64,000 bases of DNA from Actinomycetota bacterium. GTDB taxonomy: Bacteria; Actinomycetota; Acidimicrobiia; Acidimicrobiales; CADCSY01. The translations under genes and the position numbers were made by a program. The notes under the pieces are model-generated. The model did no database searches, was not told where the DNA came from, and saw only the letters and a program-made list of their open reading frames with translations. Below are positions 4,999 through 52,214 of the stretch, one piece after another (position 1 is the first letter of the stretch; each line of letters opens with the position of its first letter). The stretch spans positions 17,764 through 81,763 of the forward strand of contig JADDQY010000035.1 in assembly GCA_016781135.1 (NCBI GenBank), written 5' to 3'.

Positions 4999-5513
4999 TG
5001 GGCGCCTCGTTCGAGCTGCCCGAGGTCGACCGGTTCACCTCGACGGCGGTCGGACCTCCGGGAGCTCGAGTGTTCTATCTCCAGGCGGTGACCGGAACCG
5101 AGGTCGTGACGCTTCGCTTGGAGAAGGCTCAGGTGGCGGCGCTCGCCGGTTACCTGGCCGAACTGCTCTCCGACCTCCCGACGCCGTCACCCGAGGAGAT
5201 CCCACGCGAACTCGAGCCGGTCGAGCCCCTGGTGGCCGAATGGGTGGTCGGTCAGCTCGGCGTGGCCTTCGACGAGGCCCGCGACCGCATGGTGATCCGC
5301 GCCGACGAGGTCGTGCCCGACGACGCCGACGACGAGGTGGCGGCCGGCGAGGGGAGCGCCCGCTTCGCCCTCACCCGGCCCCAGGTTGCGGCCTTCGTCG
5401 TCCATGCCGCCTCGCTGGTGTCCGCCGGTCGGCCTCCGTGCCCGCTGTGCCGGCGACCACTCGATCCCGAGGGACACGTGTGCATCAAGACCAACGGGCA
5501 CAAGCCGCGCTGA
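4998..5513 (+). CDS. DUF3090 family protein
   Basis: 171 aa from ATG 4998, a TGATG overlap with the upstream stop. C-terminal zinc-ribbon-like CPLCRRPLDPEGHVCIKTNGH. Second trio member. Confidence 0.75.
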   Translation: MGASFELPEVDRFTSTAVGPPGARVFYLQAVTGTEVVTLRLEKAQVAALAGYLAELLSDLPTPSPEEIPRELEPVEPLVAEWVVGQLGVAFDEARDRMVIRADEVVPDDADDEVAAGEGSARFALTRPQVAAFVVHAASLVSAGRPPCPLCRRPLDPEGHVCIKTNGHKPR

Positions 5514-6193
5514 AGCTCCTGGCCGAGGGCGACGTCGAGCTCAAGGGACGGATGCCCTGGAGCACGAACCAGACCTTTCTGGTCGAGGTGGCTCATGGCG
5601 ACGACGCCATGCTCGGGGTCTACAAGCCCGGGCGGGGTGAACGGCCGTTGTGGGACTTTCCCGGAGGCCTCTACCGCCGGGAGGTGGCGGCGTGGGTGCT
5701 CTCTGAGCTGCTCGGGTGGGGCATCGTGCCCGAGACGGTGTTGCGCGACGGCCCGTTGGGGGAGGGCTCGGTGCAGCGGTTCGTCAGCGCGGACTTCTCC
5801 CAGCACTACTTCACCCTCTACGAGGACCCGACGCACCACGACGCGCTTCGGAGGATCTGTGTGTTCGATCTCCTGGCCAACAACACCGACCGCAAGGGCG
5901 GGCACTGCCTGCTGGGGGAGGACGGCCGGCTGTGGGCGATCGACAACGGGCTCTGCTTCCACCCTCACCCCAAGGTGCGGACCGTGATCTGGGAGTTCGG
6001 GGGGGAACCGGTCCCCGACCCGCTGCTCGGCGACGTCGACGCCCTGTTGGGCCGGCTCCCCGGCGGGTTGGTGGCGCTGCTCGCCGGTGACGAGGTCGAC
6101 GGCGTGCGCCAGCGGGCGGAGTGGCTCTTGCGCCGAGGGCGCTTTCCCGCACCCGATCCCCTCGGGCGCTGCTACCCCTGGCCGCTGGTATGA
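5480..6193 (+). CDS. SCO1664 family protein (PI3/4-kinase-like fold)
   Basis: Conserved body GRMPWSTNQTFLV, GVYKPGRGERPLWDFP, NNTDRKGGHCL and WAIDNGLCFH. Start uncertain: GTG 5480 is proposed and overlaps the DUF3090 end. Confidence 0.7.
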   Translation: MHQDQRAQAALKLLAEGDVELKGRMPWSTNQTFLVEVAHGDDAMLGVYKPGRGERPLWDFPGGLYRREVAAWVLSELLGWGIVPETVLRDGPLGEGSVQRFVSADFSQHYFTLYEDPTHHDALRRICVFDLLANNTDRKGGHCLLGEDGRLWAIDNGLCFHPHPKVRTVIWEFGGEPVPDPLLGDVDALLGRLPGGLVALLAGDEVDGVRQRAEWLLRRGRFPAPDPLGRCYPWPLV

Positions 6194-7270: not shown

Positions 7271-7831
7271 CTACGCACACGCCTCGCAGACCCCGATCAG
7301 GTCGAGGCGGTGGTGCTCGGAGGTGAAGCCGGTGCGATCGGAGACCTCGGAGATGGCCCGGGCGACGCTGCGCTCGATTTGGGGCGAGGCGGTGAAGTCC
7401 TCGACCACCCCGCAGGACGAGCAGATCAGGTGGTGGTGGTGCTCGGTGAGGTCCTCGGCCAGCTCGTGGCGGGCGAAATCGTCGGTGGTGACGACCCGGC
7501 GCACCACCCCGGCCTGCTCGAGCACCGCCAGGTTGCGGTAGACCGAGCTCTGGGCCAGCGCCGGCTGCAGGCTCAAGATGTCGGGAATCGACAGCGGGTG
7601 ACGAGACTCGGCGAGCAGGTCGACGAGGGTTCGGCGCTGGGTGGTGAAGCGCTGGCCGACGGCGTCGAGGCGGTCGGCGGCCGTCACGTGGAGATCGGTC
7701 ACGATCGCGCTCGCTCGCTTGGCGCCAGCCCGGTTGGTGGAGCGCCTCGTGGAGGCCGGGTCCTCGCCCGCCCTCCCCACGCCACCCTTGCCCGGGTCGG
7801 CGTTGGAAGAGGCGCGTCGGAGATCAGGCAT
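7271..7831 (-). CDS. Fur family transcriptional regulator (metal specificity unknown)
   Basis: Winged-helix QRRTLVDLL...SVYRNLAVLEQAG, then HHHHLICSSCG and a C-terminal CEAC structural Zn site. ATG 7831 is preferred: hand-counted GC3 is about 84% and the promoter geometry is leaderless. The alternative is GTG 7702. Confidence 0.8.
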   Translation of the reverse strand: MPDLRRASSNADPGKGGVGRAGEDPASTRRSTNRAGAKRASAIVTDLHVTAADRLDAVGQRFTTQRRTLVDLLAESRHPLSIPDILSLQPALAQSSVYRNLAVLEQAGVVRRVVTTDDFARHELAEDLTEHHHHLICSSCGVVEDFTASPQIERSVARAISEVSDRTGFTSEHHRLDLIGVCEACA

Positions 7832-37295: not shown

Positions 37296-38494
37296 GCGGC
37301 GACCCGCTGTTCGCCGGGGGCGTCGACTGGGTCGTCGTGGCCTTCGTAGTGGTCAAGGCGCTGATCGGGTTCACGATCGTCATGGTCGGCGTCATCTTCA
37401 TGATCTGGTTCGAGCGCAAGGTCATCGCCGACATGCAGAACCGGATCGGTCCCAACCGGGCCGGTCGTTGGGGCCTGGCCCAGACCCTGGCCGACGGCAT
37501 CAAGCTGATCTTCAAGGAGGACCTGTGGCCTGACAAGGCCGACAAGCCGGTGTTCCGCCTCGCCCCCTACCTCTCGGTGGCTCCGGCGTTCCTCACCTTC
37601 ACCATCGTGCCCATCGGCGGGGTGTTCAGCGGCGGCAACGACGGAGCCGTCGAGCTGTTCGGCCGGCGCACCTGGCTCCAGGTGGCCGACCCCCCGGTGG
37701 GGGTGCTGTTCCTGCTGGCCATGTCTTCGATCGCCGTCTACGGCATCATGCTGGCCGGTTGGTCATCGGGCTCGAAGTACCCGCTGCTCGGTTCGGTACG
37801 GGCGTCGGCTCAAATGGTGAGCTACGAGGCCGCGCTCGGGCTGTCGGTGGTGGCGGTGGTGCTCCTCAGCGGCTCGCTGTCGACCCATGACATCGTCGCC
37901 GCCCAGGCGGGAAGCATCCTCGACTGGAACGTCATCGCCACCGCTGGCGTGCCCTTCGCCATCTTCTGCGTGGCCGCCACGGCCGAGCTCAACCGCCCCC
38001 CGTTCGACCTGGTGGAGGCCGAGCAGGAGCTGGTGGGCGGGTTCCACACCGAGTACTCCTCGATCCGCTTCGGCATGTTCTACCTGGCCGAGTTCATGAA
38101 CACCATCACCATGTCGGCCATCATCGTGACGCTGTTCCTCGGGGGACCGGCCGGGCCGGTGTTGTTCGGGCCGCCCCTCATCTGGGGGATCCTCTGGTTC
38201 ACGCTCAAGGTGCTGGTGTTCCTGTTCACCTTCGTGTGGCTGCGGGCCACGCTGCCCCGCTACCGCTACGACCAGCTCATGGACCTCGGGTGGAAGCGCC
38301 TGATCCCCCTGGCGCTGGGATGGCTGCTGGTGATCGGCGCTCAGCGCATCGGCCTCGACCGGGGCTGGGACCGCTTCGTCACCGGTGCCGCCAGCCTGGT
38401 CGTGCTCACGCTGGCGGCCGTGGCGCTGTTCGGGGCGATCAGGGTGGCCGAGCGCCGTCGCCAGAGCGACCAGTTCGGCGAGGTCGTGGCGTGA
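37292..38494 (+). CDS. nuoH: NADH-quinone oxidoreductase subunit H
   Basis: 400 aa. ERKVIADMQNRIGPNR, GWSSGSKYPLLG, RPPFDLVEAEQELVGG, and YRYDQLM. ATGA overlap with nuoG. Confidence 0.93.
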   Translation: MSGDPLFAGGVDWVVVAFVVVKALIGFTIVMVGVIFMIWFERKVIADMQNRIGPNRAGRWGLAQTLADGIKLIFKEDLWPDKADKPVFRLAPYLSVAPAFLTFTIVPIGGVFSGGNDGAVELFGRRTWLQVADPPVGVLFLLAMSSIAVYGIMLAGWSSGSKYPLLGSVRASAQMVSYEAALGLSVVAVVLLSGSLSTHDIVAAQAGSILDWNVIATAGVPFAIFCVAATAELNRPPFDLVEAEQELVGGFHTEYSSIRFGMFYLAEFMNTITMSAIIVTLFLGGPAGPVLFGPPLIWGILWFTLKVLVFLFTFVWLRATLPRYRYDQLMDLGWKRLIPLALGWLLVIGAQRIGLDRGWDRFVTGAASLVVLTLAAVALFGAIRVAERRRQSDQFGEVVA

Positions 38495-38739
38495 TGCTTC
38501 GTCCTCGTGCGCTCGCTTGGCGGTTTCGGCCTCGCTCGCGCGCGGCGCTCGCTCCGTTCGGCCGGCCCGTCGGCGCTGCGGTGGACGGGCGAAGCCTGTT
38601 GACCTGCGCCGTGGCCACGCCTGGCGGCCTCCGCCCGCTGGGGCACCAGCCACATCCAGGTTGCCTGCAGCGGCGGTCGTGGCCGGTGGCCGTGCCCCCT
38701 CGCGGCCGGTGGGTCGATGCCGGGAAGGGGCAGGCCTGA
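38494..38739 (+). CDS. candidate relay small ORF (81 codons) bridging nuoH and nuoI
   Basis: ATG 38494 overlaps the nuoH TGA (38492..38494). The frame is open to TGA 38737..38739, which overlaps the nuoI ATG (38739). The product is Arg/Pro-rich and hand-counted GC3 is about 79%. Coding status is unproven. Confidence 0.3.
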   Translation: MLRPRALAWRFRPRSRAALAPFGRPVGAAVDGRSLLTCAVATPGGLRPLGHQPHPGCLQRRSWPVAVPPRGRWVDAGKGQA

Positions 38740-46610: not shown

Positions 46611-46976
46611 GTGTCTGAGTTCCTGCGTGCCTACCTGACCGTGGCCGTGTTCGCCGGAGCCGCCGGCCTGCTGGTGCTGGCGTTGTCGACGGTGGGACGA
46701 CTCCTTCGCCCGTCCCGCCCCACTCGTGAGAAGGCCATCTCCTATGAGAGCGGCGTCGACCCGGTCGGGCCGGGGTTCGGCCAGAGCCAAGTCCGCTACT
46801 ACATCTTCGCCCTGCTGTTCGTGCTGTTCGACGTGGAGGCGGTCTACATCTTCCCCTGGGCGCTCCGGCTGGAGGAGTACGGTGGCTTCGGGCTGGTGGA
46901 AATGGCCATCTTCATCGTCATACTCGCTCTCGGACTGGTGTACGCCTGGCGGAAGGGAGTGCTGCGGTGGGTCTGA
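46611..46976 (+). CDS. nuoA2: NADH-quinone oxidoreductase subunit A, second copy
   Basis: 121 aa. [30 protein letters not shown]. Confidence 0.9.
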
Positions 46977-47467
46977 TCGAGCGGGGGAAGCTGCCCAAGC
47001 CCCTGAGCCACCTTCTCGGGCTCAGCCGTAGCTACTCGCTGTGGGTCTACCAGTGGGGGCTGGCCTGCTGCGCCATCGAGATGGGAGCGTGCTTCGGCTC
47101 GCCCCGCTACGACGTGATGCGCCTCGGCGTGATCCCGTTCCCCGTCAGCCCTCGCCAAGCCGACCTGGTCGTGGTCTCGGGCACGGTCACCGACAAGCTG
47201 GCTCCGGCCCTCCGCCGCCTCTACGAGCAGATGCCCGAGCCCAAGTACGTCATCTCCATGGGCAGCTGCGCGAACTCCGGTGGGCCCTACTGGGACTCCT
47301 ACTCGGTCACCAAAGGCGTCGACCAGATCATTCCCGTCGACGTGTACGTGCCCGGATGCCCGCCTCGGCCCGAAGCCCTGCTGGAGGGCATCGTGATGCT
47401 CCAGCAGCGCATCCGCGACGAGGACATGGCCGAGCGCTGGAAGGGAGACCCGATTGTCGTCGGCTGA
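46967..47467 (+). CDS. nuoB2: NADH-quinone oxidoreductase subunit B, second copy
   Basis: 166 aa. [24 protein letters not shown]. Confidence 0.9.
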
Positions 47468-48614
47468 GCCGGGGGCCGGGGACGATCCAGCCCGACGTCC
47501 CTCGCTGCCGGCGGAGGAGGTCACCGACCCGACGCTGCGGGCCGAGGTCGACAACCCGGCTGACGCCAACGTCCCGACCGGCGCTGAGGCTGCCCCGGGC
47601 GGAGGGACGAGCGCGGCCGACGCACCGCCGCTGCCCGCTGCCGGCGCCCCGGCTGAGCTCTCGAGCGAACAGACGCCCCCGCAGGGACAGCAGCGGGGTG
47701 CCGCCGGGCCGGACCAGGGGTTGGCCGACGTGGCCGGCGGCGACGCCGGGTCGCCGGAGAGCAGCGGCCACACCGGCACGGACCCGCCGGTGCCGGCTGC
47801 CCCGGCGAACCCGCCACCGGTCCAAGGGGGAGCCACCGTCCCGGAGCAGCCTCCGGCGACGCCTCGGGCCGTGGCCGCCGAGGGGGCGCTCGCCCGCCAG
47901 GCCAAGGCCGAGCAGGCTGACCAGGCGGCCGAGGCCGCCGCCGGCGCCGGGCTCGGGGAGGAACCGGATCCGGGGCTCGACCAGCCCCGCCGCGACCTGG
48001 TCGAGCGCCTCGGCACCGCCCTCGATGGCGGGGTGCTCGACGTGCACATCGTCCCCGGCGTCGATGTGTGGGTGCGGGTGGGCATCGACCACTGGCACCG
48101 GGCCTTCGAGGTGTGCCGCCACCACCTCGGGCTCACCTACTTCGACTTCCTCTCGGCCATCGACTGGCTGCCCTCGCCCTTCGGGCGGAGCGAGGACACC
48201 GGTACCGACGAGGACGCTGGCGCCGACGACCGGGCCGCCGGCCCCGGAGGCCCCGGCGAGCTCGAGCACGGGGTGACCGGGGGGAGCACCCGCTTCCAGC
48301 TGCTGGCCCGGCTGGTGTCGCCCACCAGCCACCTCGGGTTGACCCTCAAGGCCGACGTCGACGACGTCGAGCTCCGGGCGCCGACGGTCTCGGATCTCTA
48401 CCCCGGGGCCGACTGGCACGAGCGCGAGACGTGGGAGATGTACGGCATCGACTTCGTCGGGCACCCCAACCTCGTGCACCTCTACCTCCCGGGCGCGTTC
48501 GAGGGCCACCCGCTGCGCAAGGACTTCCCCCTCCTGGCCCGTGAGGTCAAGCCCTGGCCCGGGCTGGTCGACGTCGAGGCCATGCCCGGCGAAGCCGAAG
48601 CAGCGTCATCGTGA
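47454..48614 (+). CDS. nuoC2: NADH-quinone oxidoreductase subunit C, second copy, with ~185-aa disordered N-terminal extension
   Basis: 386 aa. The C-terminal domain has [18 protein letters not shown] and [10 protein letters not shown]. The N-terminus is Pro/Ala/Gly/Glu-rich but keeps high GC3. The TTG 47454 start is uncertain. Confidence 0.8.
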
Positions 48615-48630
48615 GGGCCACGCCGTGAGC

Positions 48631-49797
48631 ATGCTCACCGAACACCAGCAGCGGGCCTATATCGGCGGCCAGGCCGCCGAGGCCCGGGTCAACCTCGAGC
48701 TCGAGACCGACGGGATGACCCTCAACATCGGGCCCCAGCACCCGGCGACCCACGGCACGCTGCGCATCATCACCCGCCTCGACGGCGAGCAGGTGATCTC
48801 CGCCGAGCCGGTGATGGGCTACATGCACCGGGGCTACGAGAAGCTCACCGAGGTCCGTACGTACCCCCAGATCAACACCCTGATCAACCGCATCGACTGG
48901 CTCAGCAGCTTCGCCAACGAGGTGCCGTTCATCCTCGCCGCCGAGCGGCTCATGGAGATCGAGGCGCCACCCCGGGCGCAGTGGATCCGCACGATTTTCT
49001 TCGAGCTCAGCCGGATCGCCAACATCACCCTGTTCCTGGGCGAGATGGGCGTGCAGCTGGGCGCGATCACCGCGGTCTTCTACGCCTTCCGCGATCGGGA
49101 GCACGTGCTCAACCAGATCGAGGCGGCGACCGGGGGCCGCTTCCACCCGAACTACGACCGCATCGGGGGGCTGAAGGAAGACCTGCCCAAGGGGTGGGTG
49201 GCCGAGACCAAGTCGGTGATGGCCAAGGTGCGCGACTTCTGCGACGAGATGGAGACCTTGGTCGGCACCAACGAGATCTTCGAGACCCGCACCCGGGGCA
49301 TCGGGGTCATCCCCGTCGAGGTGGCCCTCGGCTACGGGCTGTCGGGGGCGAACATCCGGGCCTCCGGCCTCGACTGGGACCTGCGTCGCGACAGCGACAC
49401 CCCTCTGGCCTGGAAGGAGGTCGACTGGAAGGTCTGGACCCACCCCGACGGCGACAGCTTCGCCCGCTACTGGGTCCGCCTCCAAGAGACCCGGGAGGCG
49501 ACGCTGATCGTCGACCAGCTGCTCGACGGCCTGCCGGCGGGGCCGATCATGGCCAAGGTGCCCCGCATCATCAAGGTGCCGCCGGGGGAGGCGTGGGTCG
49601 CCACCGAGAACCCGCTCGGCGAGATGGGCTACTACCTCGTCAGCAAGGGCGACCTGGGCCCGTTCCGGGTCAAGATCCGCACGCCCTCGTTCAACAACAT
49701 CTCGATCGTCCCCTGGGTGCTCAAGGGCGTCTACGTTCCCGACGTGATCACCATCCTGGCCAGCCTCTACTTCATCCTCGGCGACATCGACCGATGA
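48631..49797 (+). CDS. nuoD2: NADH-quinone oxidoreductase subunit D, second copy
   Basis: 388 aa from ATG 48631 (or GTG 48625). NIGPQHPATHGTLR, INRIDWLSSF and a C-terminal [10 protein letters not shown]. Confidence 0.9.
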   Translation: MLTEHQQRAYIGGQAAEARVNLELETDGMTLNIGPQHPATHGTLRIITRLDGEQVISAEPVMGYMHRGYEKLTEVRTYPQINTLINRIDWLSSFANEVPFILAAERLMEIEAPPRAQWIRTIFFELSRIANITLFLGEMGVQLGAITAVFYAFRDREHVLNQIEAATGGRFHPNYDRIGGLKEDLPKGWVAETKSVMAKVRDFCDEMETLVGTNEIFETRTRGIGVIPVEVALGYGLSGANIRASGLDWDLRRDSDTPLAWKEVDWKVWTHPDGDSFARYWVRLQETREATLIVDQLLDGLPAGPIMAKVPRIIKVPPGEAWVATENPLGEMGYYLVSKGDLGPFRVKIRTPSFNNISIVPWVLKGVYVPDVITILASLYFILGDIDR

Positions 49798-49967
49798 GAG
49801 AAAACAGCGCGCCGAAGGCGCACGTTTGGCCTTTCTCGGCGGTCGAGCGGAACGGGGCAGCTGGACGGATGGCACCAAGGGGAGGGGCCCGCCCCGAGCG
49901 CCAGCGAGGGGTGAGAGGGGTCCCGCGTGATGACAGGACCCGTCCAGCGGTGGGGGTGGCAACGTGA
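49794..49967 (+). CDS. candidate relay small ORF (57 codons) bridging nuoD2 and nuoH2
   Basis: ATG 49794 forms an ATGA overlap with the nuoD2 stop (49795..49797). The frame is open to TGA 49965..49967, a GTGA overlap with the nuoH2 GTG at 49964. Product [57 protein letters not shown]. Confidence 0.3.
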
Positions 49968-50995
49968 CGCTCGCGCTGGAGCTCGCCTACTGGCAGCAGC
50001 TCGCCATCAAGGTCCTCGCCATCCTCGTCATCGTGCCCACGGCCACGGCCATCATCGTCCAGACCTTCCTCTTCAAGATGATGGCCCACATGCAGAGCCG
50101 GCTCGGCCCGATGGAGGCCGGCCCCCACGGCACCCTCCAGCTCATGGCCGACGGGGCCAAGTTCGTGCAGAAGGAGCTGCTGGCCCCGGCTCGGGCCGAC
50201 CGGCGGGTGTTCACCCTGGCCCCCGTGGTGGTGCTGCTGTCCACCTTCTTGTTGTTCGTGGTCATCCCCGCTGGTCCGGGCATCGTGGCCGAGAACCTCG
50301 ACCTCGGCATCTTCTTCGCCCTGGCGGTGTCGTCGATCTCGGTCCTCGGCGTGCTCATGGCCGGTTGGGCCTCGGCCAACAAGTACGCCCTCATGGGCGG
50401 GCTGCGGGCGGCCGGTCAGCTCATCGCCTACGAGCTGCCCCTGGTCCTGGCTGTGGTGGGGGTGGTCATCCAGGCAGGCGATCTCAGCCTGCAGGGCATC
50501 GTGCGGGCCCAGGCCGAGGGGGAGATCTTCGGCTTCGGGCTGATCGGTCTGCCGTTCGTGCTCACTCAGTTCCTCGGCTTCGCCCTGTTCCTGATCGCGA
50601 CCCAGGCCGAGCTCACTCAGCCTCCCTTCGACATGCCGGTGGCAGAGTCGGAGCTGGTGGCCGGCTTCCAGGTGGAGTACAGCGGCTTGCAGTTCCTCTA
50701 CTTCTACCTCGGCGAGTTCGGCGCCGCCTTCGCCTTCTCGGCGCTGGCCGCCACCATGTTCCTCGGCGGCTGGTGGGTCCCGGGGCTCGATCTCGAAGGC
50801 GGCCTGCTGGCGAACGTCGTGGGTCCGGTGGTGCTGTTCGCCAAGACGATGGCGGTCGCCTTCGTCATCTTCTGGATCCGCTTCACCTACCCTCGTCTGC
50901 GCGAGGACCAGCTCCAGAGCTTCGCCTGGAAGTACCTCATCCCCCTGTCGCTCGTGAACATCCTGGTGACAGGGGCGTTCAAGGTCATCTTCTAA
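49964..50995 (+). CDS. nuoH2: NADH-quinone oxidoreductase subunit H, second copy
   Basis: 343 aa. [20 protein letters not shown] and [16 protein letters not shown]. Confidence 0.9.
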
Positions 50996-51495: not shown

Positions 51496-51615
51496 AGCGG
51501 GTGCCGACCGGGCCTGGGCGACGCCGCCGACGACTGGCCGCGCCCCCGAAAGCGTGCAAAGGTTCGACGTGCAGCACGGGACCCTTGCACGAGAGGTAGA
51601 TCGGCGGTCTCATCC

Positions 51616-52134
51616 TTGATTGCCCAGAACATCGCCTTCACCATCCTCGCCGCGGTGGCCACGCTGGCCGCCGTGCGAGTGGTGACCACCCGCAACGTCG
51701 TCCACGCCGCCCTCTACCTGGTGATGGTGCTGGCCAGCGTGGGTGCGCTCTACGTGCTGCTGGTCGCCGAGTTCGTGGCCGCGGTGCAGATCCTGATCTA
51801 CATCGGCGCCATCGTCGTACTGTTCTTGTTCGGGATCATGCTCACCCGGGCCACGATCGGCGCCGACGCCGGCCTCGACAACGACCAGCGGTGGATCGCG
51901 GCGGTCACCGGGCTGTTCCTGCTCGGAGTGCTCACCTTCGTGCTGGTCGACGCCTTCGGCGACGACCGCCTGCCCAGTCTCGAGAACATGAGCCGTGAGG
52001 CGCTCACGGCCGAGCGAGGCACCGGCGCCGTGGGCGACGCCATCTTCTCCACCTATCTCGTCCCCTTCGAGGTGGTCTCGGTGCTCCTGCTCGCCGCCCT
52101 GGTCGGCGCCATCGTCCTGGCACGGAGGGAGTGA
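51616..52134 (+). CDS. nuoJ2: NADH-quinone oxidoreductase subunit J, second copy
   Basis: 172 aa. [36 protein letters not shown] start inferred by alignment with nuoJ. Confidence 0.85.
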   Translation: MIAQNIAFTILAAVATLAAVRVVTTRNVVHAALYLVMVLASVGALYVLLVAEFVAAVQILIYIGAIVVLFLFGIMLTRATIGADAGLDNDQRWIAAVTGLFLLGVLTFVLVDAFGDDRLPSLENMSREALTAERGTGAVGDAIFSTYLVPFEVVSVLLLAALVGAIVLARRE

Positions 52135-52214
52135 TGTCGTCGTTCGCTGCGCTCTCGTGCCTGACCGCCGACGTCCGACGGCCGCTGGCCACGCCGGTCG
52201 GGGAAGGAACCTGA
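52134..52214 (+). CDS. candidate relay small ORF (26 codons) bridging nuoJ2 and nuoK2
   Basis: ATG 52134 overlaps the nuoJ2 TGA (52132..52134). TGA 52212..52214 overlaps the nuoK2 ATG (52214). Product MSSFAALSCLTADVRRPLATPVGEGT. Confidence 0.3.
   Translation: MSSFAALSCLTADVRRPLATPVGEGT

Follow-up and report, generated by a model that had tools for sequence, protein, structure and literature searches.

The second of the two complex I operons in the DNA analysed here raises the question of why its nuoD and nuoH genes are separated by a 166-nt spacer, and why this spacer is crossed from end to end by a short open reading frame (ORF) that overlaps both genes. The DNA, referred to below as the window, is a 64-kb stretch (64,000 nt) of contig JADDQY010000035.1 from an Actinomycetota bacterium; it is 71% GC and carries the two operons in tandem. 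The first, starting at about 29561, is a 14-subunit operon with nuoE, nuoF and nuoG (nuoA to nuoI were confirmed), and the second, starting at 46611, is an 11-subunit operon with the order nuoA,B,C,D,H,I,J,K,L... and without these three genes; we mark the genes of the two operons with the suffixes 1 and 2. We propose, at a probability of roughly 0.62, that the frame in the nuoD2–nuoH2 spacer is a termination-reinitiation relay ORF which would keep the two genes coupled after an insertion had come between them, the peptide itself being a by-product.

This proposal comes from comparing the window with related loci, which carry L numbers below. There are 173 of these, 160 found through NuoD and 13 closer ones found through a protein search with NuoH followed by contig look-ups; the best relative in a metagenome scan had 83% NuoD identity. 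The closest relatives of the window are metagenome-assembled genomes (MAGs) of Actinomycetota and Acidimicrobiales.

The bridging frame and the conservation of its phase

The features of the junction are as follows.

48625..49797, + strand: nuoD2, encoding NuoD, the 49-kDa subunit, of the 11-subunit operon (Pfam PF00346 Complex1_49kDa, E = 4e-76)
49794..49797, + strand: ATGA, made of the nuoD2 stop TGA and the ATG of the putative relay ORF (nuoD2 ends ...GAC CGA TGA, with the stop at 49795-49797)
49794..49967, + strand: bridging (putative relay) ORF of 57 codons plus stop, seen by translation, its frame kept in all clade variants
49798..49963, + strand: intercistronic insert of 166 nt, confined to the window's clade
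49802..49827, + strand: hairpin AAAC-A-GC-GCGCC-GAA-GGCGC-AC-GTTT, seen in the sequence
49884..49913, + strand: central conserved block GGGGCCCGCCCCGAGCGCCAGCGAGGGGTG, present in L001 (one 1-nt indel) and as variants in L166 and L161
49918..49941, + strand: inverted repeat GGGTCC-N12-GGACCC (GGGTCC 49918-23, GGACCC 49936-41)
49929..49963, + strand: distal unit GATGACAGGACCCG...CAAC, homologous to the entire 28-nt spacer of L002, L167 and L168
49952..49959, + strand: G-rich Shine-Dalgarno (SD)-like motif GGGGGTGG, 4-7 nt 5' of the nuoH2 GTG, found by reading the sequence
49964..49967, + strand: GTGA, made of the nuoH2 start GTG (49964) and the stop TGA of the putative relay ORF (49965-49967), seen in the sequence
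49964..50995, + strand: nuoH2, encoding NuoH of 343 aa (Pfam PF00146 NADHdh, E = 3e-99)

This anatomy is established. The ATGA at the nuoD2 stop, the 57-codon open frame and the GTGA at nuoH2 are in the sequence as the original prediction had read them, and the 166-nt spacer holds the hairpin and the inverted repeat where it had placed them. The 5' end (GAGAGAAAACA) is purine- and A-rich, with a local GC of 0.60-0.62 against 0.71 in the window as a whole. A start for nuoH2 further upstream is impossible because TGA at 49931-49933 closes its frame; homologs of NuoH2 are 343-346 aa long and 82-91% identical to it. A consensus scan of 49300-50400 gave no sigma-70-like promoter and no + strand terminator, and an actinobacterial TANNNT -10 box is not possible within the spacer, from which the dinucleotide TA is absent.

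The peptide encoded by the frame ends ...AVGVAT*, is rich in Arg, Gly, Pro and Ala, has no homolog among 5.8 billion proteins, matches no Pfam family and is not conserved in relatives. Coding composition, judged by codon-position GC against the flanking genes, was not found: GC1/2/3 of the bridging ORF is 0.72/0.67/0.69, and GC3 is 0.955 in nuoD2 and 0.942 in nuoH2. The frame is in addition stop-free already from 48981, upstream of its ATG. We consider that the open frame in the window sequence by itself proves little, and that its departure from chance appears only when it is set against the relatives.

The relatives in question form a clade whose NuoD and NuoH are 88-92% identical to those of the window, and which contains eight spacer sequence variants of seven lengths:

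L002, L167 and L168: spacer of 28 nt, bridging ORF of 11 codons
L172: spacer of 46 nt, bridging ORF of 17 codons
window: spacer of 166 nt, bridging ORF of 57 codons
L001: spacer of 178 nt, bridging ORF of 61 codons
L170 (in sequence unlike L001): spacer of 178 nt, bridging ORF of 61 codons
L171: spacer of 193 nt, bridging ORF of 66 codons
L161-165: spacer of 199 nt, bridging ORF of 70 codons
L166: spacer of 208 nt, bridging ORF of 71 codons

Every one of these lengths is 1 mod 3, and every variant has a single ORF across the spacer that starts in the ATGA on the nuoD stop. The ORF ends in (A/G)TGA on the nuoH start throughout the clade except in L161-165, where that stop has been lost through an A-to-G change and the ORF continues to 9 nt beyond the start. 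There is also a G/A-rich stretch 5-13 nt 5' of the nuoH start in every variant. The suggestion in the original prediction that the spacer had been kept translatable is thus borne out across the clade, from 28 to 208 nt.

When the variants are placed on a tree, the long spacer appears to be the ancestral form, as it is found in all three subclades. On this reading L172 has lost 132 nt in comparison with L170, the 28-nt form has lost about 150 nt, and L171 has gained 165 nt by a new insertion into the 28-nt form; the long forms differ among themselves by 9-42 nt. There are at least six independent net length changes on the tree and all of them are multiples of 3, for which the probability under a uniform null is (1/3)^6, or about 0.001. 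On a finer scale, the indels between the window and L001 are -3, +9, -1, +1 and +6: the -1/+1 pair is compensating, so that ten residues are rewritten before the phase is restored. The residues themselves are free to differ even where the DNA is not: in the window and L001 the invariant block GACAGGACCCG gives D-R-T-R-P, and in L002, L161, L166, L167, L170 and L171 it gives (V/M/G)-T-G-P.

The nuoH–nuoI spacers of the same genomes serve as a control. They measure 1, 14, 16, 23 and 37 nt, follow no mod-3 rule and have an ordinary SD, and in the window the upstream gene ends in TAA. Across the nuoD–nuoH variants, phase and openness are conserved and the peptide is not. Because the reading frame over conserved DNA blocks differs between genomes, the comparison indicates that selection acts on translatability and phase, and not on the peptide. 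A length constrained mod 3 with no constraint on residues is, as we read it, what marks a frame whose translation is itself the purpose.

Origin of the insert and spacers in the wider family

Junctions were scored in two rounds, a first census of 150 (the window included) and a final census of 163 Acidimicrobiia junctions, 81 of them unique. In all 163 of the scorable junctions nuoH directly follows nuoD, and nuoE, nuoF and nuoG lie between them in none. The first census gave a 4-nt NTGA overlap of the two genes in 60 cases, a 1-nt TGATG overlap in 25, a gap of 0-14 nt in 31 and a longer gap in 34. On a tree of NuoD plus NuoH the spacer-bearing close relatives of the window make up one clade, and its successive outgroups L173, L003, L086 and L064 have a direct 4-nt nuoD/nuoH overlap. 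This establishes the polarity of the event, and we regard the spacer as a clade-specific insertion because the outgroups retain the overlap. The direct overlap being ancestral, the ATG on the nuoD2 stop is the fossil of the ancestral nuoH start codon. Searches with tblastn of the window's NuoE, NuoF and NuoG against the spacer gave at most 20 bits, the same as for the controls NuoD1 and NuoH1. From these comparisons the 166-nt spacer is a lineage-specific insertion and not a scar of nuoEFG.

Parts of the insert can be followed in other genomes. A search of the window and the 173 loci with the insert returned the homologous junctions of L001, L161, L166, L170, L172 and L002, and no second copy of a window-type insert was found, whether in the window (64 kb) or in the related nuo-centred loci (1.16 Mb). 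A 17-nt piece of the central block GGGGCCCGCCCCGAGCGCCAGCGAGGGGTG recurs in the nuoD–nuoH spacer of the distant L029. The L029 locus (5164-5620), whose NuoD is just 81% identical to that of the window, has a spacer of about 100 nt with the exact 17-nt match (CGAGCGCCAGCGAGGGG... region); its nuoH, from a long-read MAG, appears to be frameshifted around 5550-5610, where it is divided between two frames, most likely because of assembly errors. The 28-nt spacer of L002, L167 and L168 has the form ATGA-CAGGACCCGTGCGGCGGGGGTCC..-GTGA, and in the corresponding distal part of the window spacer an internal ATGA at 49930-33, which contains the TGA that closes the nuoH2 frame, looks like the relic of an earlier junction. 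At 49898-49917 a stretch of 20 nt weakly echoes the nuoD 3' end, and Tandem Repeats Finder (TRF) detected no tandem repeat within the spacer. It is plausible, although not demonstrable, that the spacer was assembled from decayed junction duplications, of which the echo and the internal ATGA would be the traces.

The final census contains 40 unique nuoD–nuoH spacers of 15 nt or more, of which 34 have a restart codon on the nuoD stop. They are distributed as follows.

Bridged exactly: 24 of 40 unique spacers
ORF stopping no more than 12 nt from the nuoH start: 3 of 40
In frame with nuoH, giving an N-terminal extension from the old start: 6 of 40
ORF ends early: 1 of 40 (L065)
ORF runs out of frame into nuoH: 0 of 40
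No restart codon, the nuoD stop being TAG and not TGA: 6 of 40

Conservation of the frame in relatives, the lack of which would have counted against the original prediction by its own terms, held beyond the clade: of the 34 unique long spacers that have a restart codon, 27 are bridged exactly or to within 12 nt. A finder of genes based on GC3 was also run for a general base rate of bridging; it was noisy and placed starts poorly, missed nuoI2 and counted one real gene as a bridge, and we use it qualitatively only.

Seven long spacers are unbridged (L006, L015, L030, L065, L128, L136 and L140) and lack a usable restart at the end of nuoD, six of them following a nuoD stop TAG and that of L065 following TTGA. 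These seven have in common a motif TCAC-TAGTGT/TAGTCT/TAGGCT-CC about 25-50 nt 5' of nuoH. The motif fits the TANNNT -10 consensus and could be a candidate internal promoter, which may be an alternative answer to the same problem of insertion.

For several other long spacers the source can be identified. The spacer of L105 is an 83% copy of the 3' end of its own nuoD, i.e. a tandem duplication of the junction, and those of L076 and L085 also hold copies of the nuoD 3' end. In another group the spacer holds one copy (L018, L050 and L122), two copies (L041) or three copies (L038 and L068) of a 47-nt unit. An intact unit amounts to an ORF of 16 codons that has ATGA at either end, with GGGAG/GGAG lying 8-9 nt ahead of the next ATG; the single 48-codon bridge of L142 is a fusion of three decayed units. 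The tandem arrays of this unit, in sponge-associated and other Acidimicrobiales, lie at L038 5165-5301, L068 5165-5301, L041 3339-3428 and L142 3665-3803, and resemble the variable-number tandem repeat loci of mycobacterial interspersed repetitive units (MIRU-VNTR loci).

A hairpin element of about 130 nt is found at L171 1308-1440 in the nuoD–nuoH junction, and at L030 6279-6408 and L136 4785-4904 in the nuoH–nuoI junction, the 5' 130 nt of the L171 spacer being 77% and 74% identical to the nuoH–nuoI sequences of L030 and L136 respectively. As it occupies two different nuo junctions, the element is dispersed. It contains three short palindromic hairpins (GCAAGC-GGA-GCTTGC, GCCGGC-GGA-GCCGGC and GCCGCC-TGC-GGCGGC), and at nuoH–nuoI it is crossed by an ORF from the nuoH stop, which reaches 8 nt into nuoI in L030 and stops 3 nt short of nuoI in L136. 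At its end the L136 insert has a copy of the NuoH C-terminus, and more generally the inserts of L171, L030 and L136 finish with a degenerate copy of either the upstream junction or the upstream gene end.

Long, near-perfect palindromes whose stems measure about 20 bp, such as GGCACCGGGATCACGGCTGTACAGCCGTGATCCCGGTGCC in L117, occupy the nuoD–nuoH spacers of L098 (3671-3755), L117 (2509-2596) and L134 (3671-3782). ORFs from the nuoD stop cross them, exactly in L098, ending 6 nt or less from the nuoH start in L117, and by way of a chain of ORFs in L134.

Weighing the proposed relay ORF against other explanations

The model that we favour for the window can be set out as a sequence of steps. The ancestral nuoD/nuoH junction would have been a four-base NTGA overlap at which the two genes were translationally coupled. 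After the insertion, the old restart codon on the nuoD stop (ATGA) persisted, and now opens the 57-codon ORF through the insert. A ribosome finishing NuoD would re-initiate at the overlapping ATG and translate the GC-rich, hairpin-prone insert, so that the RNA is kept unfolded and covered by ribosomes; it would then terminate on the nuoH GTG and re-initiate there, aided by the SD-like motif at 49952-49959. Coupled and roughly equimolar synthesis of neighbouring complex I subunits would in this way survive the insertion. Re-initiation at both overlaps, and a benefit in the form of coupling or of protection from polarity, are what the arrangement of the sequence leads us to infer.

Three benefits could be envisaged: that coupling is kept, that 166 nt of naked RNA are shielded from structure and polarity, and that no out-of-frame run passes over the nuoH start. 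The first two, coupling and RNA protection, are favoured because the ORFs always reach the nuoH start and do not stop early.

The model has precedents for each of its parts. Termination-reinitiation requires overlaps or very short distances, and about 20 nt almost abolishes coupling (PMC10666635); overlaps are moreover enriched among subunits of heteromeric complexes (PMC10666635). Short ORFs are able to deliver ribosomes to a downstream gene, and MIRUs, whose insertion at start codons couples their internal ORF, do so with a -4 spacing (PMC12548453). In Mycobacterium tuberculosis NUGA overlaps, upstream ORFs (uORFs) included, are common, often have no SD, and are associated with less Rho-dependent termination (bioRxiv 10.1101/2022.06.01.494293).

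Several points weigh against the relay ORF. The frame is open in 31% of mononucleotide shuffles of the spacer with length and ends fixed. The independent length changes are few (at least six), and the clade variants in which they are seen are phylogenetically related. Translation of the relay ORF is something that we infer only from the evolutionary conservation of phase, and some of it could be intrinsic to the inserted elements and not a result of selection in the host; in L171, L030 and L136 the insert has a duplicated copy of the junction at its end. The putative SD-like motif GGGGGTGG, for which we presume pairing with the anti-SD, could let ribosomes start nuoH2 independently. In the wider family, the ORF of L065 stops early and six lineages with a TAG stop do without bridging. 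Finally, a stable hairpin right after a stop is reported to inhibit re-initiation by scanning ribosomes (PMC7518266), and if this effect applied to the hairpin after the nuoD stop it would oppose coupling; here the terminating ribosome probably covers the 5' arm of the hairpin, in which case the overlapping restart would be unhindered.

The strongest of the competing explanations, though in our view an unlikely one, is that the frame is a neutral by-product: the spacer would be junk or an insert that matters only as RNA, stops would be absent because they are rare at 71% GC, nuoH2 would be started from its own SD-like site, and the ATGA would be a mere fossil. The shuffles, the flat codon-position GC, the peptide with no homologs and the SD-like GGGGGTGG 5' of the GTG are all as this explanation would have them, and a frame open from 48981 is typical of high-GC DNA. 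It does not account for seven clade lengths that are all 1 mod 3 with every variant open from end to end, nor for large deletions (-132 and about -150) and a 165-nt insertion that are all in phase. None of the 34 long spacers with a restart codon has an ORF that runs out of frame into nuoH, and the nuoH–nuoI spacers of the same genomes follow no such rule.

We think it improbable, but somewhat less so than the remaining alternatives, that the insert is an RNA unit, in which the hairpin and a T-containing tail would form a partial terminator or attenuator, a processing site or a 3'-end stabiliser separating nuoABCD from nuoHIJKLMN; such a role could coexist with translation of the relay ORF. 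The hairpin has arms AAAC (49802-05) and GCGCC (49809-13), a GAA loop, and arms GGCGC (49817-21) and GTTT (49824-27). Its core, the 17-nt block CAGCGCGCCGAAGGCGC (49805-49821), is invariant in the window, L001, L166 and L170 and has one change in L172, in spacers whose remainder is 50-78% identical, and it is followed by CTTTC or TTTTT in each member. The hairpin begins 5 nt past the stop, which is the position described for ribosome termination structures (RTS; PMC7518266). Against an RNA unit, the invariance of the stem means that there is no covariation, and its stability is no better than that of shuffles. In folding tests of the whole spacer and of single hairpins from five genomes z ranged from -1.2 to +0.9, with -1.2 for the whole spacer of the window and about 0 for each of its hairpins, i.e. 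no thermodynamic signal, and the predicted lowest-energy fold of the window sequence omits the hairpin. A terminator scan called the 49807-49823 hairpin as a minus-strand site only, the + strand tail GTTTGGCCTTTCTC being under the threshold of the scan. An Rfam 15 scan of 49000-50600 at E up to 10 found no match in the spacer, and the best matches elsewhere in that region score 11-17 bits, against gathering thresholds of 37-55. The second repeat, GGGTCC/GGACCC, shows no compensatory changes in L167 and L168 and no excess stability. L161 and L171 are bridged yet have no CAGCGCGCCGAAGGCGC block, L002 and L167 have no block at all, and a role of the RNA leaves the mod-3 rule unexplained.

It is very improbable that the frame is the gene of a functional small protein, such as a factor for the assembly of the 11-subunit complex or an accessory subunit of it. 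In its favour, CAGCGCGCCGAAGGCGC is always translated as S-A/T-P-K-A, which gives five clade members an N-terminal motif in the same frame. The product is in other respects unlike a protein under selection, being Arg/Gly/Pro/Ala-rich, with flat GC3 and neither a homolog nor a Pfam match; it is anything from 11 to 71 codons long, 10 residues differ between the window and L001 through a compensated frameshift, the DNA block with the highest conservation falls in two different reading frames, and the N-terminus in L161 and L171 is unrelated.

The original prediction had also offered a deletion scar, still translatable, at the position of nuoEFG, and this we discount almost entirely: it has in its favour the position only, as nuoE, nuoF and nuoG lie between nuoD and nuoH in 14-subunit operons including the window's first, and it is opposed by a spacer limited to one young clade whose outgroups have the 4-nt overlap, by the absence of intermediates in all 163 junctions, by similarity to NuoE, NuoF and NuoG within the noise of the control proteins, and by other spacers at this junction that can be shown to have arisen by duplication of the nuoD 3' end or to be dispersed elements.

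If the relay ORF is accepted, it would show how multi-subunit operons tolerate insertions at coupled junctions with subunit synthesis still balanced. For annotation, bridging frames of this kind would be neither protein genes nor free non-coding DNA, their length being held to one residue mod 3, and the comparative signature of a conserved phase and an unconserved peptide can be searched for genome-wide. At the nuoD–nuoH junction, natural variants of between 28 and 208 nt are already at hand.

Other junctions of the window and comparison with known systems

Two further junctions in the window are bridged.

52131-52214: nuoJ2–nuoK2 bridge of 27 codons over a spacer of 79 nt (nuoJ2 stop TGA 52132-52134; GTG 52131 / ATG 52134)
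38494-38739: nuoH1–nuoI1 bridge of 81 codons in the 14-subunit operon, with TGATG at both ends

The nuoJ2–nuoK2 bridge ends in TGA at 52212-52214, which overlaps the nuoK2 ATG at 52214 (TGATG). At the same junction L167, L168, L170 and L171 keep a 19-codon bridge (55 nt) despite sequence divergence, L001 has a 61-codon ORF that ends 2 nt before nuoK, and L166 and L173 have just 9 nt with an SD. The nuoH1–nuoI1 bridge, to which the original prediction had also pointed, has GC1/2/3 of 0.80/0.70/0.78 and no coding signature. A 43-nt block within it (38523-38565) is 93% identical to 7399-7441 of the L001 nuoJ–nuoK spacer and is read in the same frame (FRPxSxAALAPFGR), which suggests that the common block is a dispersed element.

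Two junctions of the second operon are not bridged. That of nuoH2–nuoI2 is 23 nt long, with a GGAGG SD and a TAA stop. The nuoI2–nuoJ2 spacer (51496-51615, 120 nt) follows a TAG stop with no overlapping restart codon and contains an imperfect hairpin (GTGCAAAGG...CCCTTGCAC); the apparent start of nuoJ2 is TTG at 51616 with no obvious SD, and in relatives the nuoI–nuoJ junction is 0-6 nt or an overlap. Upstream, the long ORF from 48541 over-extends nuoD2, because the NuoD2 of 390 aa that begins at GTG 48625, the likely start, matches those of relatives (389-390 aa, beginning ...SMLTEHQQ). This GTG is joined to the nuoC2 stop (48612-48614) by a mini-ORF of five codons at 48611-48628 with NTGA overlaps at both ends, which could be due to chance. 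NuoC2 (47454-48614) has 386 aa, with the Complex1_30kDa domain limited to residues 214-362 and an N-terminal extension of about 200 residues that has no Pfam match; NuoC of relatives ranges from 382 to 618 aa.

A broader and more tentative proposal, to which we would give rather less than even odds, is that Acidimicrobiia harbour families of small GC-rich, hairpin-bearing elements that insert at and excise from NTGA or TGATG junctions, duplicate the junction, and are translationally transparent. The nuoD2–nuoH2, nuoJ2–nuoK2 and nuoH1–nuoI1 bridges would then be three instances, and the elements a functional analogue of MIRUs in a different actinobacterial class. Such families, if they exist, would be a case in nature of selection that bears on translatability and phase alone.

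The likeness to MIRUs (Supply et al. 1997, summarised in PMC12548453), which we compare by their description, lies in a short insert between co-oriented operon genes of a high-GC actinobacterium, with an internal ORF that stands at -4 spacing to a flanking gene and would be coupled to it, so that the insert would have little effect on expression. Among the relatives of the window it extends to one to three tandem 47-nt units flanked by ATGA (L018, L050, L041, L038 and L068) and to a hairpin-rich element at two nuo junctions in different genomes. Insert types other than that of the nuoD2–nuoH2 spacer are dispersed (L171 nuoD–nuoH and L030/L136 nuoH–nuoI; window nuoH1–nuoI1 and L001 nuoJ–nuoK). 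The window insert differs in that it is not tandem, has no second copy in the DNA searched, and belongs to a host of the class Acidimicrobiia. As no second copy was detected we regard it as a functional analogue only, and not as a MIRU-like mobile element.

Coupling where a stop codon overlaps a start codon (ATGA, TGATG) was reportedly described by Huber and colleagues in 2019. The four-base overlaps known between genes for subunits of heteromeric complexes (Huber et al. 2023, PMC10666635) are of the same type as the ancestral nuoD/nuoH junction. The present case differs from termination-reinitiation at a single junction in that there are two overlaps in series, linked by a non-conserved ORF of 57 codons, and in that coupling would span 166 nt, compared with the failure of direct coupling at about 20 nt.

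Leader peptides provide another parallel, as in tap-repA of plasmid R1, where a leader peptide is coupled to the rep gene. The NUGA uORFs of mycobacteria (bioRxiv 10.1101/2022.06.01.494293, PMC12548453) resemble the relay ORF as short ORFs whose product is irrelevant and which end on the start of a real gene. Such uORFs and leader peptides lie in 5' leaders and have a start of their own, whereas the window ORF is intercistronic and would be started by re-initiation; no regulatory input such as stalling or antisense RNA is apparent for it. The RTS (Chemla et al. 2020, PMC7518266) have in common with the window a hairpin about 5 nt past the stop and a gene pair more than 25 nt apart. They are proposed to insulate against re-initiation by scanning, however, whereas here the restart overlaps the stop, so that no scanning is needed, and the window hairpin is without excess stability. 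Set beside these systems, the frame in the nuoD2–nuoH2 spacer would be an intercistronic relay ORF that is coupled by stop/start overlaps at both of its ends.

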